This document shows, in pieces, positions 8,818-60,480 of a DNA stretch of 64,000 nucleotides (its first letter is position 1; each line of letters starts with the position of its first letter). The position numbers and the translations under genes were made by a program. Below the pieces are notes generated by a model, which did not search any database, was not told where the DNA came from, and worked only from the letters and a program-made list of their open reading frames with translations. Source of the DNA: a bacterium (GTDB taxonomy: Bacteria > Krumholzibacteriota > Krumholzibacteriia > LZORAL124-64-63). The stretch spans positions 80,033 through 144,032 of the forward strand of contig JAAEQC010000102.1 of assembly GCA_024231905.1 (NCBI GenBank). Reading direction: 5' to 3'.

Positions 8818-8946
8818 ACCGGCCCCCCCCTCCCGCCCCGAGAATCTTTGATCCCCATTGAAAACCCGTATTCGCAAACCCGCCGGTTAGGGGTGCAATT
8901 GCCGACGTTCGCACTTTCGCATGAGATGGACAACGTGGTGGAGGGG

Positions 8947-15003: not shown

Positions 15004-16955
15004 CAGTCGTCTTCCTTCCTCTCGCGCATGGCTACCGCCGCGGTGGCCAGGGCTCGGGACGCTGCCTCGCGGGCTTCCTGGGGCCAGGCCTTGAACAGGA
15101 GCATCCGGCGTTCGTCCGAGATGCGTTCCAACAGCCGCCGACCCGAGGCTGGGCAGTGGCGTCCAATGATGTCCAGGACCTCCGTCAGCCAGGGTTCCGA
15201 CCGCTCGGTCGCCTTGAGTCCGGACACCCGGCGCCGCAGTTCGTCGAGCACTTCGGAAGCCGGCGCCGCGTTGTGATCGCTCGACGCCTTCAACCACTCG
15301 GCGTAGGCCTTGCGTTGTTTGCCGCGGAAGGGACCGAGGGCGGCGGCGATGGTGCGCATCTGTCGGTCGGGGCCTCCGCGCACCAGGCCGTCCTGCAGCC
15401 AGCCGCCGAAGACCTTGCCACGGGACGTCAGCAGCAGGACCGAGTACACGGGAAAATAGCGACGCTCGGGACGGCTGCAGAAATCGAAGCCGCTGCGCAC
15501 TTCGCCGAAGATGGCCAGGCGCTCCAGGCGCCGGCCGATGTCTGGATCCTCCAGGGCGCTGGGGCTCGTCACGAGGGTTTGCATGAGGCGCAGGTCGTCG
15601 CGCCCTTCGACAGTGTCGGCCAGGAATTCGCCGACCAGGTGCGGCCAGACCGCCGCGTGCAGGCCGGGGCGGTTTTCGCTGCAGACGCGCCCCCAGAAGG
15701 AGATGACGGCCCTTATGCCCCGTTCGCGGATCACCGAAGCGATGCGCTCGATCACCGGGTCGACCGCCGCCAGGTCGTCCGCTTCCAGCAGGGAGCCTAC
15801 CGCCTCGTGGAGTTCGGTGTCGTATTCGGGTTCCGGGTGGCCGGCCACGATGCGCGTGACCTCGGCCAAGGCCCGCGTGCGGCCGAAGGCATCCCCGCCC
15901 TTGCTCAGGAAATTCAGGTAGATGAAGAGATCTTCCGTGTCGGCGCGCGATTCGAAGCACTGGTCGCCGGCCTCGAACGAGGAAAGCTCATGGCGCAGTT
16001 CCTCCAGGGGCAGGTCGTATTCGGAATCGTCGGTAAGACAGCGGGGATCGACCTCGGCGTCCCCCTCCTCGAAGTCCGCCCCGGCGTGGGAGCCGAGGGC
16101 CTTGAGCAGGACCTGGGCCGCTGCGCGGTCGATACCGGCCTCCATGTCGTCGGCCGCTTCGCGGATCGCTTCGGCCAGGCGCGAGAGATCTCCGTCCTGG
16201 TCGAGCATGCGCCGCAAGGCGCCACCCACCGAACGGGCCCCCTCGGCCAACCGGTGATCCTTGTCCGCGTCCTGGGGACGGGTGGCGGGATCCGTGTCCG
16301 GCGCGACGATGTCGGTGCTGCGGGCCATGAGCACGGTGAAGAGTTCCTGCAGGGTCTCGCGGCAGTCCTGGAGAACGTTTTCGTGGGTGCCCCGGGAAGA
16401 GAGCTCGTCGAGGATGGCGTCCACGGCCTCGCCGATGCTGGCCGCGCCGGCCTCGGCCCACTGCTTGGCGAAGACCTTGGGCACCACCTGCACCGTGTCG
16501 GGCAGGTGCGCGAAGTCCGCCTCGGCCAGATGACCCGTGTCGTCGGCCTCCCGCCGATGGCCCAGGAGGGAGGTGGACAGGTCGTGGAGGGCCGCTTCGG
16601 TGGCCTGGGGGTGGATCGTGATCCGGTGCAGCCCCAGTTTCTCCATGAGGCTCGCCACGCGTTCCACGCCGCGGGATGCAGCGTCGAGCAGGACCGGTCC
16701 GATCCGCAACTGATCGCCGGCTTCGATGATGACGAAGGCCTCGCGATCAGCAGTCAGGGCCGCGCGGAAATTGTCGGAAGCAGCGGTGAAGTTGACATGC
16801 CCGGGCGGATAGAGCGCGCCACTGGTCAGCAGCTTGTCCAGCAGCATCATCATCTCGGACGCGGGCGGGGCGTCCATCAGGCCGGTGGCTTGACCGGTCT
16901 GGTTCGGCGTGTCGAAAGCTGGGGACATGGTGGCGAATTCCCTCCTCGTATGCAC
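15003..16955 (-). CDS. Hypothetical protein (about 640-650 aa), no recognisable domain, translationally coupled to the HD-GYP gene
   Basis: Long ORF with coding-like codon usage. Start is either GTG at 16955 or ATG at 16928, which follows GAGGAGGG. The stop overlaps the HD-GYP start. Confidence 0.5.
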   Translation of the reverse strand: MHTRREFATMSPAFDTPNQTGQATGLMDAPPASEMMMLLDKLLTSGALYPPGHVNFTAASDNFRAALTADREAFVIIEAGDQLRIGPVLLDAASRGVERVASLMEKLGLHRITIHPQATEAALHDLSTSLLGHRREADDTGHLAEADFAHLPDTVQVVPKVFAKQWAEAGAASIGEAVDAILDELSSRGTHENVLQDCRETLQELFTVLMARSTDIVAPDTDPATRPQDADKDHRLAEGARSVGGALRRMLDQDGDLSRLAEAIREAADDMEAGIDRAAAQVLLKALGSHAGADFEEGDAEVDPRCLTDDSEYDLPLEELRHELSSFEAGDQCFESRADTEDLFIYLNFLSKGGDAFGRTRALAEVTRIVAGHPEPEYDTELHEAVGSLLEADDLAAVDPVIERIASVIRERGIRAVISFWGRVCSENRPGLHAAVWPHLVGEFLADTVEGRDDLRLMQTLVTSPSALEDPDIGRRLERLAIFGEVRSGFDFCSRPERRYFPVYSVLLLTSRGKVFGGWLQDGLVRGGPDRQMRTIAAALGPFRGKQRKAYAEWLKASSDHNAAPASEVLDELRRRVSGLKATERSEPWLTEVLDIIGRHCPASGRRLLERISDERRMLLFKAWPQEAREAASRALATAAVAMRERKEDD

Positions 16956-19736: not shown

Positions 19737-20480
19737 GACGTGGACCTTCTCTTCATGGGATTCGGAGGCGGCCTGGTGGTGGCGGCCGTGGCCTGGGGTG
19801 TGTGGAAGATCGCCCGCCGGGGACGCCGGCGCGGTCCCGCCGCCCCGGACGTGACCTACGAGAGCTTCGTGACCAGCATGAAAGCCGTGGGCGAGCTGAG
19901 CGTCTTCCGCATCGTGACCAAGGAAGTCATCACCGCCAGCGACCACTGGTTCGGCGAGTTCGGCAAGAAGTACCTGAACTGGCTGCTGTCCAGCCAGCGC
20001 ATCACCCTGGTCATCGAGTTCGACGTGGACTTCCGCTACGACCTGACCGATCCGGCCTTCCGGGTCGAGCGCCGGGGCGAGGGCGCCTTCCACATGACCC
20101 TGCCGTCGTGCCGCCACGAGGTCCTCATCCGGGACATGCGCATCCACTCGGAGGACAAGACCGAGTTGCTGCCCTGGCTCATGCCCGACCTGCTGGGCCG
20201 TTTCTTCACCGGCGGCTTCAGCGTCGAGGCCAAGAACAAGCTCATCACCGAGACCCGCGACCAGGCCAGCCGCTTCGCCGGCGACCTGGTGGGGCGCACC
20301 ACGGGCGAGGCCCAGCGCTCGGCGGCCCGCACCCTGACCATGCTGGCCCAGGGCCTGGGCGCCTGGAAGGTGGACTTCGATTTCACCGAGGGCGGCGATT
20401 TTGAACCGGTGGTGGATACGTCCTCCCTGGAACGAACCTTGCCCGCCTCCGGCGCGGACGTGGCCGGAGGTGCCTCATGA
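19737..20480 (+). CDS. DUF4230-like membrane-anchored protein
   Basis: N-terminal TM helix after a GTG start preceded by AAGGAG. Alternative starts at 19689 and 19713. Pattern ELSVFRIV...ITLVIEFDV resembles DUF4230. Stop overlaps the next start (ATGA). Confidence 0.5.
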   Translation, partial: DVDLLFMGFGGGLVVAAVAWGVWKIARRGRRRGPAAPDVTYESFVTSMKAVGELSVFRIVTKEVITASDHWFGEFGKKYLNWLLSSQRITLVIEFDVDFRYDLTDPAFRVERRGEGAFHMTLPSCRHEVLIRDMRIHSEDKTELLPWLMPDLLGRFFTGGFSVEAKNKLITETRDQASRFAGDLVGRTTGEAQRSAARTLTMLAQGLGAWKVDFDFTEGGDFEPVVDTSSLERTLPASGADVAGGAS

Positions 20481-20983
20481 GCGGACGCCGCACGGTGGTG
20501 GGGGTCATGGGCGGTTGCGCGGCAGAATCCGGAACCGTGGAGAACGCGCGGACCCTCGGCCGGCTCATCGCCGAACACGGGTGGGTGCTGCTGTCCGGCG
20601 GACGGCCCACGGGGGTCATGCAGGCCTCGGTGGACGGGGCCAAAGAGGCCGGGGGCTTCACCGTGGGGGTGCTATTCGACACGGAGCACGCCGACGCGGC
20701 CGTGGGCCTGGACCTGGTCATCCCCACGGGCATGGGCGCCGGGCGCAACGTCATCAACATCCTGGCCAGCGACGTGGTGGTGGCCTGCCGGGGCTCGGGC
20801 GGCACCCTGAGCGAGATCGCCCTGGCCCTGCGCTTCGGCCGGCCGGTGGTGCTGCTGGACTTCGATCCGGGAGAGGCGTTCCTGACGGCCTGCGCCGCCG
20901 ACGCCCGCTGGACCCTGGCGGCCGATCCGCGGAAGGCTGTCGACGCGGTGCGGGGCTACCTGGAGGAAGCGGGGCGGGCCTAG
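20477..20983 (+). CDS. TIGR00725 / LOG-like Rossmann-fold protein
   Basis: GGRPTGVMQASVDGAKEAGG and CRGSGGTLSEIA match the LOG-family GGGxxGLMG and PGGxGTxxE motifs. 168 aa. Confidence 0.7.
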   Translation: MSGRRTVVGVMGGCAAESGTVENARTLGRLIAEHGWVLLSGGRPTGVMQASVDGAKEAGGFTVGVLFDTEHADAAVGLDLVIPTGMGAGRNVINILASDVVVACRGSGGTLSEIALALRFGRPVVLLDFDPGEAFLTACAADARWTLAADPRKAVDAVRGYLEEAGRA

Positions 20984-21980: not shown

Positions 21981-24080
21981 CTACCGGGCCGCCCCGGTCG
22001 GCACCTCGGTCGGTCGCTCAACAAATGGTTCGTTCTCCTCTGGAGATTGTAGCAACCACAAGTCGAACCACGCCCGGTCCCACTCCATCTTCGCCAGCCG
22101 GTTCTCGTGGGTGGTCAGCCCGTGGGGTTCGCCCGGATAGACCACCAGTTCCGTGGGCACGTCCAGGTAGTGGCGCAGGGCCCGGTACAGGGCCTTGCTG
22201 TGGGCCGGTGGCACCCGCGGGTCGTTGCCGCCCACGTGGATCAGGGTGGGCGTCCTGACCTGGTCCAACCCGTACAGGGGACTGGCCTGCTGGTAGTGGT
22301 GCTCCTGCTCCCAGGGCAGGCCCTCCACGAAGTTGATCACGTGGCCGGGCGTGTCCTCGGTGCCCCACTGGATGACCATGTCCAGGACGCCGGCGCCGCT
22401 GCTGGCGGCGGCGAACAGGTCCGGTTCGGCGACGATCATGCAGTTGGTCAGGTAGCCGCCGTTGCTCCAGCCCATGACGCCGATGTGGTCCGGGTCGGCG
22501 ATGCCATCGTCGATCAGCCAGCGGGTGCCGGCGGTGATGTCCGCCACCTCGATCTCGTTCTCGCGGCCGATGAGCTTCTCCAGGAACTCGTCCCCGTAGC
22601 CGGTGGACCCATGGTAGTTGGGACTGAGCATGGCGTAGCCCTGGCTGGCCATGAGGGTGCGGCCGTAGATCCACAGGCGCAGACGGTGCTTGGTGCTGCT
22701 GGTGGGACCGCCGTGGAGTTCGATGACCGTGGGCAGGGGGCCGTCCGCCCGCTCGTAGCCGGCCGGCAGTTCGAGAATGCCCCACACCTCGTCGCCGTCA
22801 GCGCCGGTCCAGCTCACGTGCTCGATACGCGGCAGGACCCAGGAGTCCACCTGAGGATTGGTCTTGGTCAGGCGGGAGAAACGGTCCTTGGCGGCCACGG
22901 CGTAGATGTCGTTGGCGTCGGTGATGGTCTCCAGGACCACCGCCAGACGCCGGCCGCGCTCGTCGAAGCTGAAAGAGCCGATGACGCCGTCGCCGTCGGC
23001 CAGCAATTCGGAGCGGCCTTGGCCGCCCTGTTGCACGTCGTGGGTGCCGTACACCCGCACCCGGGCCATGCTCTCGCCCCGGTAGCAGAGGGTGCGCGAG
23101 GTGCCGCGCCAGGCCAGACCACCGTCGAAGGTCACCATTTCCGGACGCCCGATCCGCTGCAGGGGCCATCCGTCGCGGCCCTGCTCGGCGACCCAGATCT
23201 GGGACGCGTAGCCGTCGTAGGCGATGGAGAAGGCCAGGGCGCGGCTGTCGCCCGACCAGGCCAGGCCCTCGATCCAGCCGTAGGGGGAGGGATGGTCGGC
23301 GCGCCACTGCTGGTCCGTCAGGGCGGTGAGCTCGCCGCTCTCCAGGTCGAGGACCTCCACCCGGGACCAGCCTTCCTTGAAGATCAGTTCGTTGTCCTCG
23401 GTGGTGACCATGGCCAGCCGCCGGCCGTCGGGGGACAGGCTCAACTCCCAGATCACCCGTTCGGCCGCCAGGACCTCGTCCTCGCGCCAGGCCAGCAGGT
23501 CCAGGCGGTGGATGGCCTGCAGGTCGCGCACGCCGTGGCCGTACTCCAGGTCGGCGTACTTCTCGCGCAGATCGGTCCACTCGTCGTCGCGGTGTTCCTT
23601 GCTGGTCACGTAGTAGAGAGCGGTGCCGTCGGGGGCGAGGGCGAAGTCGTCCACGCCGTCCTTCACGCGGGTCACGGGGACCGGATCGCCGCCGTTGGTG
23701 GGCACCCGCCATACCTGGCGCGAACCGTCCCGCGGGGGAGCCTCGAGGCCGGCGTCCACCCGGCCCAGGCACCAGATGTCGCGTCCGCCCGGACCCCAGG
23801 CCACGGCGCCGGGACCGAAGCCGTCGAAGGTCAGGCGCCGGCGGTCCGTGCCGTCGCGTCCCACGATCCACAGGTCGCGGCTGCGGCCTTCCTTGCCCTG
23901 GCCCCAGCGGCTCTCGCTGTGGGCGACCAGTTCGCCGTCGGGGGAGAGGGCCAGGTTGCCCAGGCCGATGAGGTCGAAGTAGTCCTCGGGCTGGGGAACG
24001 TGGTCGCGGAAGGGTGTCTCGGCCAGGGCGGGGAGCGCCAGGAACGCGGCGAGGATCATGATCACGGATAGCGAACGCAC
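21981..24080 (-). CDS. Secreted S9-family serine peptidase with N-terminal PD40/beta-propeller region
   Basis: GWSNGGY nucleophile motif, a C-terminal Asp/His region and a signal peptide. GTG start after GGAGGT. Confidence 0.8.
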   Translation of the reverse strand: MRSLSVIMILAAFLALPALAETPFRDHVPQPEDYFDLIGLGNLALSPDGELVAHSESRWGQGKEGRSRDLWIVGRDGTDRRRLTFDGFGPGAVAWGPGGRDIWCLGRVDAGLEAPPRDGSRQVWRVPTNGGDPVPVTRVKDGVDDFALAPDGTALYYVTSKEHRDDEWTDLREKYADLEYGHGVRDLQAIHRLDLLAWREDEVLAAERVIWELSLSPDGRRLAMVTTEDNELIFKEGWSRVEVLDLESGELTALTDQQWRADHPSPYGWIEGLAWSGDSRALAFSIAYDGYASQIWVAEQGRDGWPLQRIGRPEMVTFDGGLAWRGTSRTLCYRGESMARVRVYGTHDVQQGGQGRSELLADGDGVIGSFSFDERGRRLAVVLETITDANDIYAVAAKDRFSRLTKTNPQVDSWVLPRIEHVSWTGADGDEVWGILELPAGYERADGPLPTVIELHGGPTSSTKHRLRLWIYGRTLMASQGYAMLSPNYHGSTGYGDEFLEKLIGRENEIEVADITAGTRWLIDDGIADPDHIGVMGWSNGGYLTNCMIVAEPDLFAAASSGAGVLDMVIQWGTEDTPGHVINFVEGLPWEQEHHYQQASPLYGLDQVRTPTLIHVGGNDPRVPPAHSKALYRALRHYLDVPTELVVYPGEPHGLTTHENRLAKMEWDRAWFDLWLLQSPEENEPFVERPTEVPTGAAR

Positions 24081-24210
24081 GGCGGGACCTCCGGATAGTC
24101 TGTTGCCAGGAATTTTCGTCAGGTTACACTATCATGACCGATGCCTACGAGGTACCGGTTCCTGGTCCGGAGCGGTTCCGGACATCCACCCCCTTTCCCG
24201 GAGTCTCCAC

Positions 24211-26223
24211 GTGTGCGGAATCTGCGGCGCGTTCGCCCTGGACGGGCGCCTGGACCTGCCCGACAAGACGCCCGAACGCATGATCGGCGTCATGCGCCAT
24301 CGCGGTCCCGACGAGTTCGGCGCCTGGCGTGACGACCGCGTCTTCCTGGGCCACGCGCGCCTGAGCATCATCGATCTGGCGGGCGGCCAGCAACCCATGG
24401 CCGGCCGGGCCGACCATTGGCTCACTTTCAACGGCGAGATCTTCAACTACGTGGAACTGACCGAGGAACTGCGGGCCCTGGGCCACGTCTTCCGCACGCG
24501 CTGCGACACCGAGGTCATCCTCCGGGCCTACGAGGAGTGGGGCGACGCCTGCGTCGAGCGTTTCAACGGCCAGTTCGCCTTCGCCCTGTGGGACCGACCC
24601 CGCGGCCGCCTCTTCCTGGCCCGGGACCGTTACGGCATTCGCCCCCTCTACCTGGCCGCCCACGACGGGCGCCTGCTCTTCGCGTCGGAGATCAAGTCTC
24701 TGCGGGCCTACCCAGGCTTCGCCCCGGCCCTGGATCCGGGCTCCGTGGCGGAAGTCTCCACCTACTGGGTGAACATCGCCCCGGCCACCGCCTTCGCGGG
24801 CGTGGCCCAGTTGCCCCCCGGCCACACGGCCGTGGTGGAGGCGAATCCGTCCGGACCGCCCCCGCCCGCGCCCCTGCCGCCGGCGTTGCGAATCCGCCGC
24901 TACTGGCACCCGGAATTCCTGCCTGCGGACGAGGACCGGCGGCGCGTGGCCCCGGACGAGGCCTCGCGCCTGGCGAAGGACGTGCGCGAGGCCCTGGTCG
25001 ATGCTGCCACCATCCGTCTGCGGGCGGACGTGCCCGTGGGCGCCTACCTCTCCGGCGGCCTGGATTCCTCCACCACCGCGGCGCTGATCCACCGCTACAC
25101 GGACCACCGCCTGAAGACCTTCTCCGTGGGCTTCGCTGACCGGGACTACGACGAGACCGACTGGCAGTACGCCATGGCCGCCCACATCGGCACCGAGCAC
25201 GTCACGGTGAAAGTGGACGGCGACGACATCGCGTCCCGCTTCGAGGAAGTCGTGTGGCTGGCCGAGACGCCGGTCCTGCGCACGGCTCCGGCGCCCCTGC
25301 ATGCCCTGTCGGGCCTGGCCCGCTCCGAGGACTTCAAGGTCGTCCTGACGGGCGAGGGCGCCGACGAGGTCTTCGTGGGCTACAACATCTTCCGCGAGGC
25401 CAAGGTGCGCCGCTTCTGGGCGCGGGACCCGGCAGCGCGGGCCCGGTCCATGCTGCTGACCCGACTCTACCCTTACCTGGCCCAGTCGCCTCCGGAATTC
25501 CTGCGCCGCTTCTACGGCCAGGGCCTGGAGGACGTGGACGACCCCTTCTACTCCCACCGCCCCCGCTGGCACAATACGGGCGCCGTCGCCAAGCTTCTGG
25601 CGGTGGACGGAACCGACGCCCTGCGGTCCGCCGAGGAACGCCTGGCCGCCTCTCTGCCCGCGGAATTCACGGCCTGGGGACCGGTGGCCCGGGCCCAGTA
25701 CGTGGAGATGACCACCTTCCTGGCCGGCTATCTGCTCAGCTCCCAGGGGGACCGCATGCTCATGGGGCATTCGGTGGAGGGGCGCTTCCCGTTCCTGGAC
25801 CACGAACTGGCCGCTGTGGCCGCGCGGATACCCGCGTCGGCCAAGCTTCAGTCCCTGGTGGAGAAGGCGATATTGAAGGAGAGCGTTGCGGATCTGCTGC
25901 CCGCGAGTATCCTGAACAGGCCGAAGCAGCCGTACCGGGCGCCCGACGGCGCCAGTTTCGCCGGCAACGCCGGCCGCGATATCGTGGCCGCGCGGCTGGG
26001 CCAACACGGCGGCAGCCTGTGGGACGACCGCCGGGTGGGGGCCTTGCGGCGCAAGTGGGAAGCCGGCAAGCTGGCCAGCGCCCGCGACAACATGGCTTTC
26101 GTGGCCGCTCTGAGCGGCCGCATCCTCGAACACGAGTTCGGACCGGGTTTCGCTGACCGGCTGGCGTCTACGGAGCTGGCCCCGCAGGACCTGGTCTGGC
26201 GCGAACGACCCCGCGACGACTAG
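24211..26223 (+). CDS. Asparagine synthetase-family glutamine amidotransferase (AsnB-like, 670 aa)
   Basis: Starts (GTG)-CGICGAF (N-terminal nucleophile Cys), followed by the SGGLDSS PP-loop. Confidence 0.8.
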   Translation: MCGICGAFALDGRLDLPDKTPERMIGVMRHRGPDEFGAWRDDRVFLGHARLSIIDLAGGQQPMAGRADHWLTFNGEIFNYVELTEELRALGHVFRTRCDTEVILRAYEEWGDACVERFNGQFAFALWDRPRGRLFLARDRYGIRPLYLAAHDGRLLFASEIKSLRAYPGFAPALDPGSVAEVSTYWVNIAPATAFAGVAQLPPGHTAVVEANPSGPPPPAPLPPALRIRRYWHPEFLPADEDRRRVAPDEASRLAKDVREALVDAATIRLRADVPVGAYLSGGLDSSTTAALIHRYTDHRLKTFSVGFADRDYDETDWQYAMAAHIGTEHVTVKVDGDDIASRFEEVVWLAETPVLRTAPAPLHALSGLARSEDFKVVLTGEGADEVFVGYNIFREAKVRRFWARDPAARARSMLLTRLYPYLAQSPPEFLRRFYGQGLEDVDDPFYSHRPRWHNTGAVAKLLAVDGTDALRSAEERLAASLPAEFTAWGPVARAQYVEMTTFLAGYLLSSQGDRMLMGHSVEGRFPFLDHELAAVAARIPASAKLQSLVEKAILKESVADLLPASILNRPKQPYRAPDGASFAGNAGRDIVAARLGQHGGSLWDDRRVGALRRKWEAGKLASARDNMAFVAALSGRILEHEFGPGFADRLASTELAPQDLVWRERPRDD

Positions 26224-26244
26224 CGGACAGGGAGACGGGATTCC

Positions 26245-26496
26245 ATGAACGTGCGTGATAAGGTGTGCGAGTACATCATCGAGAACTTCCTCTTCGGCGA
26301 CGCCGAGCCCATGGCGGACGACACCATGTCGCTGCTGGACGAGGGCATCATCGACTCGGTGGGCGTCATGGAACTGGTGGCCTTCCTCGAGTCCGACTTC
26401 GGTATCTCCGTGGGCGACGAGGAACTCGTGCCCGACAACCTGGACTCGGTGGCCAACCTGGTGGCCTTCGTGGGCCGCAAGCAAGCCGCCGCCTAG
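26245..26496 (+). CDS. Acyl carrier protein
   Basis: 83 aa with IIDSVGVMELV (phosphopantetheine Ser in a DSx context). 4-helix ACP size. Confidence 0.75.
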   Translation: MNVRDKVCEYIIENFLFGDAEPMADDTMSLLDEGIIDSVGVMELVAFLESDFGISVGDEELVPDNLDSVANLVAFVGRKQAAA

Positions 26497-28034
26497 TGTC
26501 CACCGGCCTCGCACCCGTCCACACCCTCCTGGAGCATACGGTCCAGGCCCACGGCGACGCCGTGGGCCTGGTCCACGGCAAGAAGAGCCTGACTTGGGCC
26601 GAGGTGGAGACCGCCGCCAACCGGACGGCCCGCCTGCTGGTGGAACTGGGCGTGGCGCCCGGCGACCGGGTCGGCCTGCTGGTGGACAACGGCGTCACCT
26701 ACGTCACGAGCTTCTTCGGCATCCTCAAGGCCGGCGCCTGCGCCGTGGCCCTGAACGCGGCCAACCGGGCCGATACCCAGCGCAAACTCCTGGCCGACGC
26801 CGGGGCCCGGGTCCTGGTGACCAAGGCGGCCCAAGCCCGGCGCGACCTGCCTGAGATGGTGGCCGGCCTCGATGATCTCACCCACGTGGTGGTGGACCGG
26901 GCGGCGCCCCACTGGGAGCTTCCCGCGGGACTGTCGGTCGTCACCACCGATCAGCGCGAAGCCCTGCCCGGCGACCGCCTCGATCTGGCGGTGGAACTGG
27001 AATCCCCGGCGGCCATCCTCTACACGAGCGGCTCCACGGGCATGCCCCGGGGTGTCACGCTCCTGCACCGGAATCTGGCGGCCAACACGCGGCAGATCCT
27101 CGACTACCTGGAACTCACGTCCGACGACTCGGTCCTGGCCGTGCTCCCTTTCCACTACAGCTTCGGCATGTCCCTGCTGCTGACCCACACGGCGGTGGGC
27201 GGCCGGCTGGTGGTGGACAACCGTTTCGCCTATCCGGCCACCATCGTGGACGCCCTGGCGGAGCACGCGGTGAGCGGGTTCTCGGGGGTGCCCTCGACCT
27301 ACGCCATTCTGGCGGCGCGCACGGATTTCCTGACCCGTCCGCTACCGGCCCTGCGCTACCTGACCCAGGCCGGAGGCGGCATGACGCCGGCGTTGACGCG
27401 GAAGCTGCTGGCCACCCGCGGGCAGACGGCGCAGCTGTTCGTCATGTACGGCCAGACCGAAGCCGGCGCCCGCCTGAGTTGGGTGCCGCCCGAGCGTCTC
27501 GAAGAGAAGCTGGGTTCCATCGGCGTGGGTATCCCCGGCGTGGAACTCGCGGTGCGCCGGCCCGACGGCTCCGAGTGCGACGTGGACGAAGTGGGGGAGG
27601 TCGTGGCCCGCGGCGACAACATCATGCGCGGCTACTGGAACGACCCCGATGAGACCGCCCTCGTGCTCAAGGGCGGCGCCCTCTTCACCGGCGACCTGGG
27701 CCGCCGCGACGACGACGGCTTCATCTTCCTGGTGGACCGGGTCAAGAACATGATCAAGGCCGGCGCCAATCGCGTCAGCGCCAAGGAGATCGAGGACGCG
27801 ATCGCTGAGCTCGAGGGCGTGATGGAAGTGTGCGTGGTCGGCGTTCCGGACGAGTTGCTGGGGGAGGCCATCGAGGCGCACGTAGTGTCCGCCCCGGGCG
27901 CCGAACTGGACGAGCGGGCGGTTCTGGCCCATCTGCGCGGACGGCTGGCGTTGTTCAAGATTCCGCGCGTGGTGCAATTCCGCAAGGACCTGCCGAGAAG
28001 TTCTGCTGGGAAGATTCTCAAGTCCGAGTTGTGA
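26496..28034 (+). CDS. AMP-dependent acyl-CoA/acyl-ACP ligase
   Basis: GTG start overlapping the ACP stop (TAGTG). LYTSGSTGMPRGV AMP-binding motif, and YGQTE and GD motifs. Confidence 0.8.
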   Translation: MSTGLAPVHTLLEHTVQAHGDAVGLVHGKKSLTWAEVETAANRTARLLVELGVAPGDRVGLLVDNGVTYVTSFFGILKAGACAVALNAANRADTQRKLLADAGARVLVTKAAQARRDLPEMVAGLDDLTHVVVDRAAPHWELPAGLSVVTTDQREALPGDRLDLAVELESPAAILYTSGSTGMPRGVTLLHRNLAANTRQILDYLELTSDDSVLAVLPFHYSFGMSLLLTHTAVGGRLVVDNRFAYPATIVDALAEHAVSGFSGVPSTYAILAARTDFLTRPLPALRYLTQAGGGMTPALTRKLLATRGQTAQLFVMYGQTEAGARLSWVPPERLEEKLGSIGVGIPGVELAVRRPDGSECDVDEVGEVVARGDNIMRGYWNDPDETALVLKGGALFTGDLGRRDDDGFIFLVDRVKNMIKAGANRVSAKEIEDAIAELEGVMEVCVVGVPDELLGEAIEAHVVSAPGAELDERAVLAHLRGRLALFKIPRVVQFRKDLPRSSAGKILKSEL

Positions 28035-28043
28035 CCGGGAAGC

Positions 28044-28143
28044 GTGGGTGGGGCTGTGGTCCGGCGCGCTCCGCGCTTCGGCCCTGCGGGCCTCGCTCGG
28101 GCCGGACGGCCCGAGTCGCTTGCCGGACCACAACCCCACCCAC
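28044..28143 (+). repeat. 21-bp inverted repeat (20/21 match) enclosing a GC-rich, internally palindromic 58-nt core
   Basis: gtgggtggggctgtggtccgg ... ccggaccacaaccccacccac, immediately after the ligase stop. Confidence 0.3.
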
Positions 28144-28216
28144 CCCTCCCGGACCCAGTGGGGGCGGGGAAGAAGGTTGGTGGCGTGGATTGGCCTGGTC
28201 GGGTGGGTTCGCAGAC

Positions 28217-28250
28217 GAAGAGGCCCCGGGTGTTTACCCGGGGCCTCTTC
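28217..28250. terminator. Bidirectional GC hairpin between convergent ligase and C25 protease genes
   Basis: gaagaggccccggg-tgtttac-cccggggcctcttc, a 14-bp stem. Confidence 0.45.
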
Positions 28251-28272
28251 TGTGCTGGCAGGGCGTTTCGGG

Positions 28273-31200
28273 CTATTTGACGAGGGTCATTTTGCGGGTG
28301 ACGATGTGGTCGTCGGCGGCCACCCGGCAGTAGTAGATGCCGCTCGCCATCCTGCGGCCTGAGCTGTCGGAGCCGTCCCACATCACCGTATGGGTGGCCG
28401 CCGGCAGGTCCTCGTTCAGCAGTTCCCGCACCAGGCGTCCGGCCACGTCGTAGATCCGCACGCTCACCTGGCTGTCGCGGGGGATATCGAACCTGATGGT
28501 GGTCGCCGGGTTGAACGGGTTCGGGAAGTTCTGGTAGGCACGGAAAGCCAGCGGCGCGCCCTGATCCCCCACACCGGAGATGCCGCCGGACCCGTAGGTG
28601 AACCGCAGACACCATTCGTCGAAGGTGCCGGTATCGCCGCCGGCGCCGTCGGCCACCGTAAGAGTCCATGTGCCGTCCAGGCCCAGGCCGATGAGGGCGT
28701 CGAGGCTCTCGGCGGGGGTAAGCTCGCCGGGATACCACCCGTAGATGTTGTCGGTGCTCGAGCCGGTCCGGTTGTGAAGGATGACCGAGGCCTTGTCCGG
28801 CGAGGTCAGCGTGACCGTGAGATCGCCCTGGAAGGTGTGGCTGATATCGAGGAAGACCTCGATCCCGCTGATCGTCAACGCCGGGCCGACCGCCACATCC
28901 ACTGTGGCGACGGCGGTCTGATTGTCGTTGATCGGCAGGTCCGGCTTGTCCCAGAAATCGCTCACCACCGTCGGCACGAGCGTCATGTCGATGCCCGTCA
29001 GGTGCTGGCCCGAGGTGGGTTCCACGGGCACGGTGCCCACGCTCCATTCCTCCTTCTCGGCGACGATGGTGTAGGGACCGGCGTACAGGCCGTCCAGCAG
29101 GTAGGTGCCGTCGGTGCCGGTCGTCGCGCTGGGACCGTTGGGCAGCGCACGCACTGTTATGCCCGAGTGGTCGGCCTGGCCGTGGAGGGTCACTGTACCG
29201 GAGACGGTGCAATCGCCCGCCTCAGGGGTGAGCAGCCAGGTCACGGCGTTCTCCAGCAGGTCGGCGCGCTCGGTTCCCGCCACCGCGTAGTTGAAGCAGA
29301 AGTAGACGACTTGACCGCCCTCGGGGGCCGGGTTGGGATCGTAGGCGATGACGCTGGCGTCGCTGGGGTAAGAGGTCCAGGACGCCACCATCTCGGCGTC
29401 CGGCAGCGGCGCCATGGCGTCGTTGTCGGCGTAGGCGGTGCCGCCGCCGGTGATGGTCGAGTTCGCCAGGTTGTTGGGATGTGTGGCCACGTAGTGCGAC
29501 GTGACGCCTATGGAGATGTCGCCGCTGAGGTCATGATTCCAGTCCGTCGTGTGCAAGACGTCGGTGGCGAAGGCGCCCGAGCTCTGCTGGTCGTAGCCCA
29601 GTTCGCCGCCTTCCAGCAGGATATGGCCGCCGGCCTGGACGAATATCACCAGGCCGTCCCTGAGCGCCGTGTTGGCCAGGGTGGTGGAGTTGTTGCCGCA
29701 ACCGAGGACGACCAGGTCGTAGTTCCAGAACGTGGCCGGATCCACCGCGCCCGCGTCCACGACCGTGACGCCGTAGCCGAGTGCCTCGAGATCGGCGACG
29801 AGTTCCGCCACGCTCTTGGCGCCGTCAGGTTGGTAGCCCTCCGCCAACAGTTCGCCCTTTTCCGTGAATTTAGGCTCCGCCGCCGCCGCGACACTGTCGT
29901 CGATGACCAGCATGTCGCCTGCCGTGGGGGCGAGAGCCCAGTCCCTCGCTACTGTGGGGCCGTCGACGACGACCGGCTCGTTGGCGGGGACGTGATGCCA
30001 GGCCCGCACGACCACGTCGTAGGTGAAGTAGGGCAGGTCGCCGGTGGTGTACAGCCCGTCTGCGCCGCAGGTGACCTCGTCGTAGAGTTCGCCCGTGTCC
30101 GATCGGAAGACCCGGACCGTCGCCGTCAGCGGTTCCATGGTCACGCTGTCGTAGGCCTGGCCCTGGAGTACGCCTGCGGGCGCCGGGTCGAGAGCGAGGT
30201 CGAAGGTGTTGGCGCCGTAGTTGACTAAAACGACCTGCTCCAGGTGCAGGTAGCCGAAGCGGTCGGCCTCGAGGGTGTAATCGGCCACCAGCACGTCCTC
30301 CGGACCGGAGTAGTCGCCCTGGGCGTCGGTGACGACGCTGAACACCACGTCGTCCTTGACGAGGTTCACCACCACACCGGCTACCGGCGTGCCGCCGGAC
30401 GTGACCTTTCCGGCCACGGTGCCGTAGGCCTCGATCACGTCGAAGACCTCGCTGTGGATGTCGTGACCGGCCAGGGCGATCATGCTGGTGACCTGGCCCG
30501 GCCCGGCGGCGGTTACGGTGAGTTGGTCGCCGACCACGCTGTGCAGCGAACCGTCGGGCATCCGCGCGTAGAGCGTGGAGCCGGCCTGGTCGCAACTCGC
30601 GTGCAGCGTGCCGGGCAGGTTCAACGGGAACATGTCGTTCAAGCCGATGTCCGTGGTCACCGCCAGGTCCGGATTGCCCAGGGGCAGGGCGTTGACCGCG
30701 ATGGTCTCGGTGAACAGACGGTAGGTGTCGGCGGGGTCTCGGCCCACGATGTCGAGGCTGGGGCCGTACGGATAGTTCACCGTGATCACGGCGACGCCGC
30801 CGGCGTCGGTGGCGATGGGAGTCGTCGCGTAGTCGAGGCCCTCGGCCCAGATGTCGACGCCGGGCTTGGGCGTGACGCCGTCCTCCGCCATGACGGTCAC
30901 GGTGATGCCGGTTTCGACGCCGGCGTCGATGACCGTCGGGTCGATGGTCACCACCGCCGGCACGATCACGTTCAACTCGGCGATCACGGGCTCGCGGGAG
31001 GAGACCATGGCCACCATCTTCAGCGGCACGCCGGGCGTGAGGATCGATTCGAAGACGATCTCGCCGGTCCCATCCTGGCCGATAAGGCCGGTTCCCACCA
31101 GCACGCCGTCCTGGGTGCAGCCGACGTAGGTGCCCCACTGGCCGGTCACGGCCATGGAAGTTGAGCCCACGAAGACGGTCTCCGGGTAGGTCATCTCGTT

Positions 31201-33021
31201 GGCAGCGGGACGGCCCTGGTAGGTGGCGATGGAAGGGTCGCCCAGCAGGTTGTAGATGTTCCAGTAGTACTCCTCGTTGCTCGAGGCGGCCTCCGAGACA
31301 CTCAGGTTGCCGCGGAAGACCACGGCGCCGTTGGTGACGTACCACATGGTGGGGTCGGCCACTTCGTTGGCCCCCTCGTGGAAGAGGGCGTCGTACACAC
31401 CGCTGCCGGTCTCCGCGTAGGTCATGCCGTCGCGGATCGACGCGCCGGGGAGCGCGCCCACCGACCACCACACATCCTCGTCCCAGAGTGTGTTGTTGGA
31501 ACCGCCGATGTAGCCGATGGCGCCCTTGTTCGCGGCGCGCAGGAAGGTCTCGCCGAAGCACTCGGCGGCGTCGTAGGTGGCGGACTGGCAGCAGTTGCCG
31601 ATGGCCAGGAAGTACTTGCCGTCGTTGGTCAGGCCGTTGACGTCGCTCTGCGTCATTGTCGGGTCGGCCCAGCTCGTGACGCTGCCGTGGGCGGTGTAGT
31701 TGACGAAGCCGACGCCGTTCGAACAGTCGGCGATGATGGCCGCCTCGCTGCTGCCGCTCGCTGGGTAGTAGTAGGTGTTGGCGGTGATGCCGTGCGCCGG
31801 GTTGTAGTAGTAGTCCTGGCCGTAACGGATGGTGCCGTTGCCGTGGGTGGGACCGAACGTGCCGTCGACGCCGGCGATCAGGGTCACGTTCTCCATGTAG
31901 GACGGGTCGGGCATGCTGAAGCTGTCGTACATCAGGGTCTTGTCGATGATCCCCTGCAGCATGGCCGTGTCGGTAGCAGAAAGGCGGCCGTAGTACATCT
32001 CGGGGAACAGGTCACCGGTGGTCTCGCAGTAGGGACGGTCGGATGCCCCGTCGGACGTGGTCCAGGTGGGGCACTGGTCGACGTCACCCACGAAGAGCAC
32101 GAAGCTGGGCGCCGGATCCTCGGGGGTCGCTGCGTTGTAGAGATCGTGCAGGTAGGTCTGGATGGAGGCCGTCGTGGAGCCCACCTCAGGCGAGCCGATC
32201 ACACCGGTGATCACGGTGAAGCCGCGCTCGGTCTTCCAGGCGATGAAGTCGTCGAGCTGGGCCTGGAACCCGGACGGCGTGACGATGACCATCTTGACCG
32301 GCTGCCGCACGAGATCCGCCTTGAGCGCCGGGATGTGCACGCCGTCGATCATCCCGTAGACCGAGGCGAAGAACGGGCTCCGGGTGGCGGCCTGCAGATG
32401 TTCGGTCTCCGCCCAGCCCTGGTCGAAGACCACCTCCAGGTCGAAGCTCTCGACGATCTCCAGCTCGCCGCTCTGCGGCAGGTACCGTACCGGGGCGATC
32501 TCCAGGCGCGCCAGGTCCGCGGCGCGCATGCGGCCGAGGTATTCAACGATGACCAGCTCGCGCTCCACGCGCGCCTGGGCGTAGGCGGCGGTGTCGTAGG
32601 CGAAGGGTACGTCCTCGGGCTTCTGGCTCTTGCTCAGCGAGGGCTGGTGCGGGAAGAGCGGGTTGGTGAGGCCGTGATCGGCGAGGCGCACCGTGCGGGT
32701 CCGCAGGTTCGTGATCGTGATGCCGGCCTTGCCGCCGGCGGGCAGCGCGATGAGGCGATTCATCTGCGGCAACTCGGGCGCGCCCTCGGTCATGGAGCCG
32801 TGGAACCCGGGAATGATCAACCGGGTGAATTCGCCTCCCCGGGTATCGACGGTCAGGGCTTCGAGCCGGCCGACCTCCACGCGGTAGGTCAGCGCATCGC
32901 TCTTCTGCTCGAGCAGCGTCAGTTGCGGCTGACCTCCCTCGAGCGTGAGCGTGGTGGCGGCCATGGCGCTCGCCGCGGTGATGAGGATCAAAACGGAGGT
33001 CGTCAGCATACTCAGGCGCAT
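28273..33021 (-). CDS. Giant secreted C25-family (gingipain-like) cysteine peptidase (about 1582 aa) with P-domain and T9SS C-terminal sorting domain
   Basis: Signal peptide. C25 catalytic-domain pattern (YTAHGSVTSW His region; LAIGNCCQSATYD Cys region). FQGDLTVTLTSPDK (proprotein-convertase P-domain-like). The last ~80 aa (…NFPNPFNPATTIRFDIPRDSQVSVRIYDVAGRLVREL…RKMTLVK) match the Por/T9SS type-A CTD. Start ATG at 33021 after GAAGGGA. Confidence 0.8.
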   Translation of the reverse strand: MRLSMLTTSVLILITAASAMAATTLTLEGGQPQLTLLEQKSDALTYRVEVGRLEALTVDTRGGEFTRLIIPGFHGSMTEGAPELPQMNRLIALPAGGKAGITITNLRTRTVRLADHGLTNPLFPHQPSLSKSQKPEDVPFAYDTAAYAQARVERELVIVEYLGRMRAADLARLEIAPVRYLPQSGELEIVESFDLEVVFDQGWAETEHLQAATRSPFFASVYGMIDGVHIPALKADLVRQPVKMVIVTPSGFQAQLDDFIAWKTERGFTVITGVIGSPEVGSTTASIQTYLHDLYNAATPEDPAPSFVLFVGDVDQCPTWTTSDGASDRPYCETTGDLFPEMYYGRLSATDTAMLQGIIDKTLMYDSFSMPDPSYMENVTLIAGVDGTFGPTHGNGTIRYGQDYYYNPAHGITANTYYYPASGSSEAAIIADCSNGVGFVNYTAHGSVTSWADPTMTQSDVNGLTNDGKYFLAIGNCCQSATYDAAECFGETFLRAANKGAIGYIGGSNNTLWDEDVWWSVGALPGASIRDGMTYAETGSGVYDALFHEGANEVADPTMWYVTNGAVVFRGNLSVSEAASSNEEYYWNIYNLLGDPSIATYQGRPAANEMTYPETVFVGSTSMAVTGQWGTYVGCTQDGVLVGTGLIGQDGTGEIVFESILTPGVPLKMVAMVSSREPVIAELNVIVPAVVTIDPTVIDAGVETGITVTVMAEDGVTPKPGVDIWAEGLDYATTPIATDAGGVAVITVNYPYGPSLDIVGRDPADTYRLFTETIAVNALPLGNPDLAVTTDIGLNDMFPLNLPGTLHASCDQAGSTLYARMPDGSLHSVVGDQLTVTAAGPGQVTSMIALAGHDIHSEVFDVIEAYGTVAGKVTSGGTPVAGVVVNLVKDDVVFSVVTDAQGDYSGPEDVLVADYTLEADRFGYLHLEQVVLVNYGANTFDLALDPAPAGVLQGQAYDSVTMEPLTATVRVFRSDTGELYDEVTCGADGLYTTGDLPYFTYDVVVRAWHHVPANEPVVVDGPTVARDWALAPTAGDMLVIDDSVAAAAEPKFTEKGELLAEGYQPDGAKSVAELVADLEALGYGVTVVDAGAVDPATFWNYDLVVLGCGNNSTTLANTALRDGLVIFVQAGGHILLEGGELGYDQQSSGAFATDVLHTTDWNHDLSGDISIGVTSHYVATHPNNLANSTITGGGTAYADNDAMAPLPDAEMVASWTSYPSDASVIAYDPNPAPEGGQVVYFCFNYAVAGTERADLLENAVTWLLTPEAGDCTVSGTVTLHGQADHSGITVRALPNGPSATTGTDGTYLLDGLYAGPYTIVAEKEEWSVGTVPVEPTSGQHLTGIDMTLVPTVVSDFWDKPDLPINDNQTAVATVDVAVGPALTISGIEVFLDISHTFQGDLTVTLTSPDKASVILHNRTGSSTDNIYGWYPGELTPAESLDALIGLGLDGTWTLTVADGAGGDTGTFDEWCLRFTYGSGGISGVGDQGAPLAFRAYQNFPNPFNPATTIRFDIPRDSQVSVRIYDVAGRLVRELLNEDLPAATHTVMWDGSDSSGRRMASGIYYCRVAADDHIVTRKMTLVK

Positions 33022-33446
33022 GGTCGGGGTCCCTTCGTTCGGCATATCGGATGATCCGATTCGGCGGTCTGTGGAAGCGAAGAGATTGTGCGCCGCGAAT
33101 CGCGAGGCATCATATCACGGTTGGGTATTCCGGATCGAAGCCCGTCCTGCGCGCTCCGGCGTTACGAAACGTTCTCCGATCGGGTGGTTTCGAGACTTCG
33201 GTGGTGAACTTATTGGTTGTCATTGAACTAGACAAGACCAGTCCTGGATTGTGTGACGATTCGCGGAGAGGGGTGATCTCTGAAGTCGAAAGGGAGGCTC
33301 GCCGTGCCCGGAAAGGCCGGCCGACTCGACTCGTCAATGGCGGTCCGGATTCGGTCCGAGGGGCGGATTTTCCATCGTACCGATAGGTGTTGGGTGCTTC
33401 CTGGTACCTGCAGAGCGTTGCTCCGGAACGCGGTGAAGGCGAAGGA

Positions 33447-37183: not shown

Positions 37184-38368
37184 TCAACCCACCACGAAGG
37201 CGTCGGCCACCGTGTCGCCGTTGGCGAAGCGGTCGAGCGACAGGCTCTCGATGATGTCGTCCCGTTCGCCGGTGACCACATGCTTCGCCATGCGCTTGCC
37301 CGTCATGGGACCGAGCATGAAACCGTGGCCGCTGAACCCGCAGATATGGAAGTAACCCTCGAGCCCCGGCACGCCGCCCAGGATGGGCCGGTGGTCCGGG
37401 GTCACGTCGTACATGCCCGCCCACTGGCGCATGAGGCGCACGCCGCCGGCCTTGGGATAGTAGGCCAGCAGGGCCTTGGCGAACCGCACGGCGAAGCGCA
37501 GCTGGCTGCGGGTGTCGAACTGTTCGGGGGCGGTCCAGTGGGGCTCGGCCGGGTCGCCGATGCCGCCGACGATTTCCCCGCGCATGCTCTGGCTGAAGTA
37601 GATGCCGTTGCTGATGGAGATGACCATGGGCCCCAGGAAGGGCTTGAGCGACTCGGAGACCATGATCTCGTGGCGTTCCTGCCGGTTGGGCAATTCGATC
37701 CCGACCTTGGCCGCCAGCGTGCGGGCCCAGGGGCCGGCGCAGTTCACCACCAGGGGCGTGGCGATGGTGCCGCGGTCGGTGACCACGGCGCGCACGCGGC
37801 CGTCATCGCACTCGATATCCTCGACGGCGGTGCGGATGTGGATGGCGATGTTCCGCCGGTGGCAGGCCCGGGCGTAGCCCCACACCACGGCGAAGGGGTA
37901 GGCCGTGCCGTCGCGGGGACAAAAGGTGGCGCCCTTGATGGCGGACACGTCCAGGTCCGGGACGATGCGGCGGCAGTCCTCGGGCTGGAGGAATTCGGTC
38001 GGCACGTCGCAGCGGTTCTGCAGGGTCACGGCCTCGCGCATGGACGTCAGGTGGGACTCGTCCTCGGTGACCATGAGGTAGCCGCCCTGGCGGAAGAAGA
38101 CCTGGTAGCCCAGTTCGGCCGACATGTTCTCGTACATGCGGACCGATTCCTGGGCCAGCCGGATGTTCTCCTCGGTGGTCCACTGCTGGCGGATGCCGCC
38201 GCCGCAGCGGCCGGTGCTGCCGGCGCCGATGTAGTTCTTCTCCAGGACGACGATGTTCTTCACGCCCTGCTTGGACAGCTCGTAGGCGGTGGTCAGGCCG
38301 TTGATGCCGCCGCCGACGACGACCGCGTCTGCCGTGGCGGGAACGGGACCCGTGGACATGGGGATCAT
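37184..38368 (-). CDS. FAD-dependent oxidase beta subunit (DadA/SoxB/HcnC/OoxB-like)
   Basis: N-terminal VVVGGGINGLTTAYELSK dinucleotide fold. 394 aa. RBS GGAGGAG. Confidence 0.8.
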   Translation of the reverse strand: MIPMSTGPVPATADAVVVGGGINGLTTAYELSKQGVKNIVVLEKNYIGAGSTGRCGGGIRQQWTTEENIRLAQESVRMYENMSAELGYQVFFRQGGYLMVTEDESHLTSMREAVTLQNRCDVPTEFLQPEDCRRIVPDLDVSAIKGATFCPRDGTAYPFAVVWGYARACHRRNIAIHIRTAVEDIECDDGRVRAVVTDRGTIATPLVVNCAGPWARTLAAKVGIELPNRQERHEIMVSESLKPFLGPMVISISNGIYFSQSMRGEIVGGIGDPAEPHWTAPEQFDTRSQLRFAVRFAKALLAYYPKAGGVRLMRQWAGMYDVTPDHRPILGGVPGLEGYFHICGFSGHGFMLGPMTGKRMAKHVVTGERDDIIESLSLDRFANGDTVADAFVVG

Positions 38369-53796: not shown

Positions 53797-53807
53797 CGCT
53801 CAGCCCC

Positions 53808-60306: not shown

Positions 60307-60404
60307 GGTGCTCCTCGAGGAGGTGAAAGAGGATCGAGAGTCGAGGATAGCCCCGGCCGCTGCGGTCCTCAACTGCGTTTTCGTTTGACGGTGCCCCGCC
60401 CGGA

Positions 60405-60420: not shown

Positions 60421-60480
60421 CGTCGGGACGGGCCCGGCGCACCGCAACCGGGGAACGACGCCGTGCGCCATCGCTTCATC

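Follow-up and report, generated by a model that had tools for sequence, protein, structure and literature searches.

A conserved gene triad of an AsnB-like amidotransferase, a dedicated carrier protein and an ANL ligase that may form a carboxamide on a carrier-bound acyl group

The stretch of 64,000 nucleotides analysed here (contig JAAEQC010000102.1 of assembly GCA_024231905.1, positions 80,033 to 144,032; below, the window) belongs to a bacterium of the Krumholzibacteriota and carries, packed on its forward strand, three genes for an AsnB-like amidotransferase, a carrier protein and a ligase of the ANL family. This triad is a real conserved unit that recurs in related loci and, with permuted gene order, in distant phyla, and we propose with some reserve that it introduces a carboxamide into an acyl group tethered to the carrier. 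The three genes are:

24211..26223, forward strand: AsnB-like glutamine- and ATP-dependent amidotransferase, 670 amino acids (gene call; Pfam GATase_7 and Asn_synthase).
26245..26496, forward strand: dedicated carrier protein, 83 amino acids (Pfam PP-binding; predicted phosphopantetheine site Ser38).
26496..28034, forward strand: ANL ligase, 512 amino acids, proposed to act as an acyl-carrier-protein ligase (Pfam AMP-binding and AMP-binding_C).

Since the G+C content of the window is about 68%, lists of open reading frames (ORFs) are noisy, and the real frames were picked out by their third-position GC content (GC3). The AsnB-like gene starts with the GTG at 24211, which has a GGAG 7 nt upstream and is followed by TGC GGA ATC TGC GGC (M-C-G-I-C-G); its stop codon ends at 26223. 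A longer version that begins with the ATG at 24058 was rejected, as it would bury the N-terminal cysteine and 17 of 17 aligned homologs begin with MCG. A gap of 21 nt separates this gene from that of the carrier, whose TAG (26494-26496) shares G26496 with the GTG of the ligase (26496-26498), an overlap of 1 nt. The coordinates, the anatomy and the GTG/TAG overlap at 26496 had been given in a preliminary description of this DNA and are confirmed in every detail by the gene calls and the Pfam matches; the intact N-terminal cysteine claimed there is likewise found, C2 standing directly after the initiator methionine.

From its residues, the AsnB-like enzyme is predicted to be catalytically complete. 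It has the features of a class II (N-terminal nucleophile, Ntn) glutaminase, beginning with M1-C2-G3-I4, and C2, R50, N74, G75, E76 and D99 show no variation among 18 family members. Pfam PF00733 matches with 300.7 bits; the PP-loop S281-G-G-L-D-S286 is intact and invariant in the family, as are K552 and K572, which align with the ATP-binding lysines K429 and K449 in the synthetase domain of the Escherichia coli asparagine synthetase B (AS-B), and E382, D385 and E386, which match the acidic cluster E364, D367 and E368 of human ASNS. An AlphaFold2 model (predicted local distance difference test 86, predicted template modelling (TM) score 0.90) has TsnB9 (7YLZ) and AS-B (1CT9) as top Foldseek matches, followed by human ASNS, beta-lactam synthetase and carbapenam synthetase. 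The fold of an Ntn-glutaminase joined to a PP-loop synthetase, together with the catalytic residues, is shared with the asparagine synthetases AS-B (1CT9) and human ASNS (6GQ3).

Nevertheless, several features taken together indicate that the enzyme is not a plain asparagine synthetase. Identity to asparagine synthetases is 22-24% in the structural alignment, and R387 of AS-B (R403 in human ASNS; for the role of human D400 and R403 see PMC6748925) is aligned to Gln512, which is invariant in the family; of the D-x-x-R element (AS-B D384/R387; human D400/R403) only the arginine is firmly scored, the equivalent of D384 lying outside the printed alignment. About 110 residues (399-511) beside the active site stand where AS-B has 22, and this region is helical; the family-specific helical insertions lie at about 392-510 and about 580-654, and a C-terminal extension of about 90 amino acids relative to AS-B is helical in the AlphaFold2 model. 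The protein passes the generic asparagine synthase equivalog TIGR01536 (507.1 bits, cut-off 267.1), but every homolog tested that is linked to an acyl carrier protein (ACP) exceeds this cut-off too, so the pass is no proof that aspartate is the substrate. The cut-off of the AsnB-specific model NF006949 is not reached (310.5 vs 499 bits).

The closest solved structure, in sequence (E 7.6e-62) as well as in fold (TM score 0.68 when normalised to the query and 0.79 when normalised to the target), is TsnB9 from trichostatin biosynthesis (PDB 7YLZ), a hydroxyamidotransferase that moves hydroxylamine from a glutamate hydroxamate donor. TsnB9 also has additional helices in its synthetase domain, and its substrate is the carboxylate of a polyketide and not of an amino acid; it is, however, only 27-28% identical and works without a dedicated carrier or ligase. 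Public annotation calls the window protein asparagine synthase, a name that is probably wrong for the whole family and hides a distinct pathway.

This annotation, the TIGR01536 score (507 vs 267) and the position of the locus among housekeeping genes would all fit a chance neighbourhood of ordinary genes, one for asparagine synthetase B, one for a spare ACP and one for a FadD-type acyl-CoA synthetase. We consider this highly improbable: besides the missed NF006949 cut-off (310 vs 499), the replaced R387 and the large insertions, every FadD model stays far below its cut-off on the ligase, and the ligase homolog of Sinorhizobium meliloti is no substitute for FadD (PMC7232532). The linkage of the genes across phyla with permuted gene order, described below, also speaks against mere coincidence and puts the arrangement far beyond chance.

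In the carrier protein, Ser38 sits in GIIDSVG, a D-S-x motif at the start of helix II. The gathering threshold of PF00550 is passed (27.7 vs 20.8 bits) and no NCBIfam cut-off is reached, the best match being ACP_for_OlsHI with 51.6 of 130 bits. The lead to ornithine lipids suggested by this match was dropped, there being no GH3-like OlsH and no alpha/beta-hydrolase OlsI as partner. The closest solved structures are 2MY5, PigG, PltL and DltC, and the protein is nearer to type II peptidyl and D-alanyl carriers than to AcpP of fatty acid synthesis. Carriers of close relatives are 67-95% identical, and the top 120 homologs are all 81-92 amino acids long, none of them fused to another protein. As a separate observation, a 69-amino-acid carrier-like ORF without the phosphopantetheine serine (..FVEDAFG..) lies just upstream of the AsnB-like gene in four loci (L040, L044, L063 and L078; L numbers denote loci of other genomes), and stands in for the normal carrier in Desulfobacteraceae-type loci.

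The ligase matches PF00501 (256.1 bits) and PF13193 (59.6 bits) and has the core ANL motifs YTSGSTGMPRG, YGQTE, TGD and SAGKILK, the last with the C-terminal catalytic lysine. PRK06187 (368.7 bits, cut-off 476) is nearly tied with TIGR03098, the model of the exosortase A-associated ligase. In a tree, the ligases fall into two clades: the window protein belongs to LIG-A (355-395 bits on TIGR03098), apart from LIG-B, the clade of SMb20650 and TIGR03098-like ligases (457-600 bits). The pair of AsnB-like protein and carrier is found with both clades.

To see how far the triad extends, one genome per GTDB species was scanned with the family motifs SQGDRMLM and EGRFPFLD, which gave at least 600 candidates and at least 591 confirmed relatives. 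The best 80 of these at least 591 relatives comprise 13 in the window clade (62-68% identity) and 67 distant ones (44-52%). The 13 close relatives are genomes of the FCB superphylum from metagenomes; the distant set consists of 71 loci outside the window clade. In addition, hundreds of AsnB-like homologs with 59-94% identity are present in metagenome genomes labelled Krumholzibacteria, Gemmatimonadales or 'bacterium'. The AsnB-like protein of the window is on a separate long branch, scores dropping from 951 to 613 bits between its own 50%-identity cluster and the next. Because the simple ORF caller chose antisense ORFs in some high-GC loci, the counts of cassette genes were taken from tblastn; counts of polysaccharide genes are lower bounds.

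The carrier adjoins the AsnB-like gene in all 13 close relatives and in 56 of the 71 distant loci, and a ligase homolog is present in 52 of the 71. In every related locus inspected the carrier follows the AsnB-like gene, and in most the ligase then follows the carrier. Altogether three gene orders occur: AsnB-like gene, carrier, ligase; carrier, ligase, AsnB-like gene; and AsnB-like gene, ligase, carrier. The cassette spans Krumholzibacteriia, Acidobacteriota, Chloroflexota, Nitrospirota, Myxococcota, Alphaproteobacteria, Actinomycetota and Cyanobacteria, with loci in Sorangium cellulosum So ce56, Mesorhizobium, Phyllobacterium, Rhodoblastus acidophilus, Nocardioides, Nitrospira, Anaerolineae and cyanobacteria. 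A linkage that outlasts permutation of the gene order across at least eight phyla strongly indicates a shared function. Two close relatives (L005 and L087) keep the AsnB-like gene and the carrier without an adjacent ligase, which makes this pair the invariant core of the cassette.

Most distant cassettes have a fourth member, a NadE-like PP-loop gene of about 330 amino acids, which is found in 52 of the 71 distant loci (L014-L084) and in L085 and passes NF002048 (PRK00876; 445 vs 313 bits). No such gene was found in the 64-kb window (best tblastn E-value 0.25) or in any of the 13 close-relative loci. Polysaccharide genes lie within 10 kb of at least 27 of the 71 distant cassettes, whose flanking genes encode a sugar transferase, a chain-length determinant, Wza/Poly_export, glycosyltransferases of families 2 and 4, DegT, Wzx and an XrtA-type deacetylase; FemAB-like GNAT genes are also among the neighbours, SGNH/GDSL-like genes occur in nine loci and hexapeptide-repeat acyltransferases in Rhodoblastus. 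Near the triad of the window and of the 13 close relatives of the genome scan there are no polysaccharide genes. Five loci (L028, L079, L030, L061 and L065) have a HemK/PrmC-like N5-glutamine methyltransferase gene inside the cassette, in L028 and L079 between ligase and carrier. This hints that the amide nitrogen may be methylated in some lineages.

A tblastn search of plasmids located the cassette on pSymB of S. meliloti, annotated as asnB, acyl carrier protein, ligase and nadE and lying beside minCDE. Judged by family, order and identity (AsnB-like protein 47%, carrier 57%, ligase about 35%), the cassette is the asnB-smb20651-smb20650-nadE1 operon (Ramos-Vega et al. 2009, Microbiology 155:257, PMID 19118366), with SQGDRMLM and EGRFPFLD present in the AsnB-like proteins of both. 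In contrast to the operon, the window has no NadE-like fourth gene. Pech-Canul et al. (2020, PMC7232532) state that smb20650 is cotranscribed with smb20651, that co-expression of SMb20650 and SMb20651 in Escherichia coli yields acylated SMb20651 and that SMb20650 cannot replace FadD as acyl-CoA synthetase. A paper of 2017 still listed the function of the operon as needing investigation, and our literature search for the four-gene combination gave no match. The triad of the window is then a NadE-less, ligase-swapped, core-genome variant of a known cassette in an uncultured FCB lineage. The preliminary description had missed this operon, and also the known AsnB-like amidation of ACP-bound dicarboxylates in the formation of polyketide starter units, to which we return below.

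Instead, it had connected the triad with exosortase/PEP-CTERM loci, and had named the models by which this could be checked. TIGR03098 is indeed the best match of the ligase (375.4 bits), and TIGR03108, the XrtA amidotransferase, is the second-best match of the AsnB-like protein and its best family-specific one (401.3 bits), yet neither cut-off is reached (592.35 and 816.9 bits), nor is that of TIGR03104, the N-acetylglutaminylglutamine amide amidotransferase (350 vs 570.1 bits). Since all three models are missed by wide margins, the window proteins are not members of the exosortase-linked families. Fourteen further cassette-type AsnB-like proteins score 389-502 bits on TIGR03108, none passing; evidently the family has no model of its own and is named asparagine synthase by default. 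The ligase groups with LIG-A; within LIG-B the second ligase of L033 passes TIGR03098 (599.8 vs 592 bits), other members having 457-493.

With regard to the locus itself, the statement that no exosortase is visible holds: a hidden Markov model scan of the called genes, which left out 12.2-15.0 kb and 56.5-59.5 kb (no confidently called gene), gave no Pfam or NCBIfam match to an exosortase in the 64 kb of genome that are visible, and no PEP-CTERM-like tail was found in the window. Among the distant cassettes, by comparison, six of 71 (L019, L020, L029, L076, L081 and L083) lie within 10 kb of an exosortase, and distant cassettes occur in such loci with an exosortase that passes TIGR02602 (138 vs 105 bits) and an XrtA deacetylase that passes TIGR03006 (387 vs 276). 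The central idea of the preliminary description, a conserved triad with relatives in exosortase loci, holds. One could still argue that the triad belongs to an exosortase/PEP-CTERM exopolysaccharide system whose exosortase is encoded elsewhere in the genome; the ranking of TIGR03098 and TIGR03108, the six neighbouring exosortases, the ligase of L033 and the similar protein lengths (the models TIGR03108 and TIGR03098 have 628 and 517 positions) speak for it. We regard this as very unlikely, as the cut-offs are missed by 200-400 bits, none of 15 cassette-type AsnB-like proteins passes TIGR03108 (389-502 vs 817 bits), the triad has no neighbouring exosortase, PEP-CTERM protein or polysaccharide gene, the window and its close relatives have it in a conserved housekeeping block, and the copy of S. 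meliloti adjoins minCDE and not an exosortase.

How could the three proteins work together? The best mechanistic analogue is the AsnB-like amidation of malonyl- or succinyl-S-ACP by MgsC/MgsD (iso-migrastatin, malonamyl-ACP) and GbnA/GbnB/GbnC (gladiolin, succinamyl-ACP), modules of polyketide synthases of the trans-acyltransferase type. The stand-alone ACP GbnA receives succinate from the acyltransferase GbnB, and GbnC then uses glutamine to amidate succinyl-S-GbnA; MgsC/MgsD are stated to act likewise on malonyl-ACP (bioRxiv 10.64898/2026.04.24.720606). By description, both modules consist of a dedicated stand-alone ACP, a loader of a dicarboxylate and a homolog of asparagine synthetase that amidates the remaining free carboxylate at the expense of ATP and glutamine, and the window has the stand-alone ACP and the AsnB homolog with an intact glutaminase site. 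They differ in the loader, which is an acyltransferase that uses acyl-CoA in the polyketide modules, whereas the ANL ligase of the window is predicted to use free acid and ATP, and in the surroundings, no polyketide synthase or other secondary-metabolite gene being among the scanned genes of the window.

On this basis the triad might be a self-contained module in which a carrier-bound acyl group receives a carboxamide, the product being delivered to a glycan or lipid of the envelope; we favour this tentatively and rate it a little below an even chance. A phosphopantetheinyl transferase encoded elsewhere would convert the carrier to the holo form at Ser38. The ANL ligase would then adenylate an acid with a second carboxyl group (such as a short dicarboxylate, an acidic acyl group or an acidic amino acid) and thioesterify it to the carrier; its acceptor would thus be the carrier protein and not CoA. 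In the third step, Cys2 of the AsnB-like enzyme would hydrolyse glutamine, the PP-loop site would adenylate the distal carboxylate, still free, of the acyl group on the carrier and the transfer of ammonia would give a carbamoyl-acyl-S-carrier akin to malonamyl- or succinamyl-S-ACP. Finally, a transferase encoded elsewhere would pass the amidated acyl group to its acceptor, most probably a cell-envelope glycan or lipid. We infer every step at this locus, as well as the substrate and the acceptor, from the gene linkage, the intact active sites, the loading data of S. meliloti and the precedent of Gbn and Mgs. A persistent amide and a glycan as acceptor are backed by the HemK/PrmC-like gene in five cassettes and by the acyltransferase, polysaccharide and exosortase genes that flank distant ones.

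A number of observations weigh against this proposal. No feature of the ligase sequence points to a dicarboxylate, its LPFHYSFG being an ordinary acyl-CoA synthetase motif, and the solved structures nearest to it (8WEV/8WEU first) belong to feruloyl- and fatty-acyl-CoA synthetases, oxalate- and malonyl-CoA ligases coming after these. Ramos-Vega et al. reportedly found in 2009 acyl chains of C12 to C18 on the S. meliloti carrier, which would favour ordinary fatty acids and therefore leave no free carboxylate to amidate. The window ligase belongs to LIG-A and SMb20650 to LIG-B. Fusions of the AsnB-like protein with carrier or ligase were not found, the top 150 AsnB-like representatives having 407-743 amino acids and no carrier-sized addition; no gene for an enzyme that transfers the product is encoded near the triad, the pair of L005 and L087 has no neighbouring ligase, and the model gives no role to the NadE-like fourth gene of most distant cassettes. 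According to PMC7232532, the S. meliloti carrier is acylated in E. coli without a special substrate.

Some of these points lead to a different division of labour. The ligase, as a long-chain acyl-carrier-protein synthetase, would supply an ordinary fatty acyl group, and the AsnB-like enzyme would amidate a carboxylate elsewhere, for instance on a uronic acid, on a peptide stem or on the head group of a lipid; their contributions would be joined only in the end product, a lipid or lipoglycan that bears the amide. Sugars and peptidoglycan are known targets of AsnB homologs (WbpS, LtsA/AsnB1), TIGR03108 as the best family-specific match of the amidotransferase belongs to XrtA exopolysaccharide loci, the ligase is similar to PRK06187 and to fatty-acyl- and feruloyl-CoA synthetases, and the acylated SMb20651 seen on co-expression with SMb20650 in E. 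coli (PMC7232532) also speaks for this reading, as do L005 and L087, which keep the AsnB-like gene and the carrier without an adjacent ligase. Nonetheless, we think this unlikely, if well worth keeping in mind: the tightest and most universal link is that of the AsnB-like gene to the carrier and not of carrier to ligase, so it would be hard to explain that the AsnB-like enzyme never touches the carrier; the ligase clades swap while the pair persists; and no acyltransferase is conserved in the cassette.

Alternatively, aspartate or glutamate might be loaded by its alpha-carboxyl group and amidated in the side chain, giving an Asn- or Gln-S-carrier that decorates an envelope polymer, a combination of the principles of Dlt and GatCAB. 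D-Alanylation by DltA/DltC, which feeds a modification of the envelope, likewise uses an ANL enzyme and a small carrier of the DSxG type; DltC is among the matches of the window carrier, which also resembles the aminoacyl carriers of the PigG and PltL type and has a DSxG motif. The cluster of human ASNS that binds the alpha-amino group (E364, D367, E368) is kept as E382, D385 and E386, FemAB-like and SGNH genes (the latter with a DltD-like fold) lie near distant cassettes, and the ligase scores 212 bits on TIGR01733, a model of amino-acid adenylation. This last score is, however, below the cut-off of 317 bits, and the ligase reads LPFHYSFG in place of FDxS, the motif of amino-acid-activating enzymes with its amine-binding aspartate. 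TsnB9 keeps the same E-x-x-D-E cluster with a substrate that has no amine, hence the cluster is not diagnostic. Moreover, the Dlt system works without an amidotransferase, and the window encodes no partner of the DltB (MBOAT) or DltD type. We therefore regard this variant as distinctly unlikely. The preliminary description had suggested an N-acyl amino acid or an aminoacyl-lipid as product; nothing found in the analysis supports either.

Beyond the individual locus, the carboxamide-forming triad might be one form of a widespread carrier-bound transamidation pathway outside polyketide synthesis, in which a malonamyl-, succinamyl- or asparaginyl-like group decorates envelope glycans or lipids, and which the FCB lineage would have reduced to a core-genome triad. 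This wider view is doubtful, and we hold it with less conviction than the proposal for the triad itself.

The surroundings of the triad contain further features:

24103..24130, forward strand: sigma-70-like promoter candidate, TTGCCA-16 nt-TACACT, 80 nt upstream of the AsnB-like start.
20477..20983, forward strand: SLOG/LDcluster4 gene (PF18306, 152 bits), an uncertain companion of the triad.
28035..28272, no strand assigned: structured spacer of 238 nt between the convergent ligase and protease genes (minimum free energy compared with shuffles).
28273-33045, reverse strand: convergent C25 protease, a cargo protein of the type IX secretion system (T9SS), 1590 amino acids (Pfam Peptidase_C25, Por_Secre_tail and FlgD_ig).

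The promoter candidate, a consensus match only, is the one site in 23800-28500, where shuffles give 0.1 expected sites. The spacer has a minimum free energy of -154 kcal/mol, compared with -126.7 +/- 5.3 for shuffles (z -5.2), and contains two hairpins, a long and imperfect one (about 28043-28141) and a GC one, GAGGCCCCGGG-TGTTTA-CCCGGGGCCTC, at 28221-28248. It is a probable shared terminator region; a scan for consensus terminators after the ligase found none and picked up neither hairpin.

The ancestral gene order of the window clade is DinB, HDOD, (DUF4230), SLOG, AsnB-like gene, carrier, ligase, aconitase (reverse strand), enoyl-CoA hydratase (reverse strand) and epimerase. This block of housekeeping genes without polysaccharide genes is shared by the window and the 13 close relatives of the genome scan, and the same block is present in three further relatives. 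The remainder of the window is also housekeeping: NADH dehydrogenase subunits, phosphoenolpyruvate carboxykinase, DinB, HDOD, aconitase, glutamine synthetase, alanyl-tRNA synthetase and cytochromes. Aconitase directly follows the ligase in L009, L012 and L013, with other genes at this place in other relatives, and a C25 protease separates the two only in the window, which marks the protease as a local insertion. The domains listed above agree with the T9SS cargo protease of the preliminary description, convergent with the triad; a functional tie between the two was rejected on account of this distribution, and the protease is no meaningful context for the triad.

The SLOG gene lies directly upstream of the AsnB-like gene (<50 bp, same strand) in 8 of 15 related loci (L003, L004, L008, L010, L012, L013, L086 and L088). 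In the window a TetR gene and an S9 peptidase gene stand between it and the triad and are inserts as well. It was never seen beside the cassette in the 71 distant loci. On the wider view of a transamidation pathway given above, a SLOG-domain protein would possibly have taken the place of the NadE-like partner in the FCB lineage of the window; the gene may be a lineage-specific partner or mere synteny.

Some other parts of the window deserve mention. A polysaccharide deacetylase and a family-2 glycosyltransferase (42131-43513 and 44607-46229, both reverse strand) resemble the PgaB/PgaC pair for poly-N-acetylglucosamine; they are the only polysaccharide-type element of the window and lie 14 kb from the triad. 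Adjoining the glutamine synthetase, 37184-40049 (reverse strand) encodes a DAO-type FAD oxidoreductase and a Fer2_4/Pyr_redox_2 protein, like subunits of opine or sarcosine oxidase, and this pair is syntenic in L086 and L088. At 52264-55208 (reverse strand) two multihaem c-type cytochromes adjoin, one NapC/NirT-like and one of a seven-haem family. Large ORFs with coding-like GC3 and no Pfam match are found at 15003-16955 (reverse), 8848-9729 (forward) and 59560-62112 (forward) / 58462-62361 (reverse); in the last case, at 58.5-62.4 kb, two long ORFs overlap on opposite strands.

The at least 591 confirmed relatives place the cassette in hundreds of bacterial species, among them the model symbiont S. 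meliloti, whose carrier was validated in 2009. For this cassette, the recent finding that AsnB homologs can amidate succinate or malonate on an ACP offers the first concrete and cheap biochemical test. If the product is a decoration of the envelope, this would explain both the polysaccharide and exosortase settings of the cassette in many phyla and its fixation in the core genome of the FCB lineage. The wider pathway, if true, would be a cell-surface modification of a new class, shared by more than 500 species of at least eight phyla.

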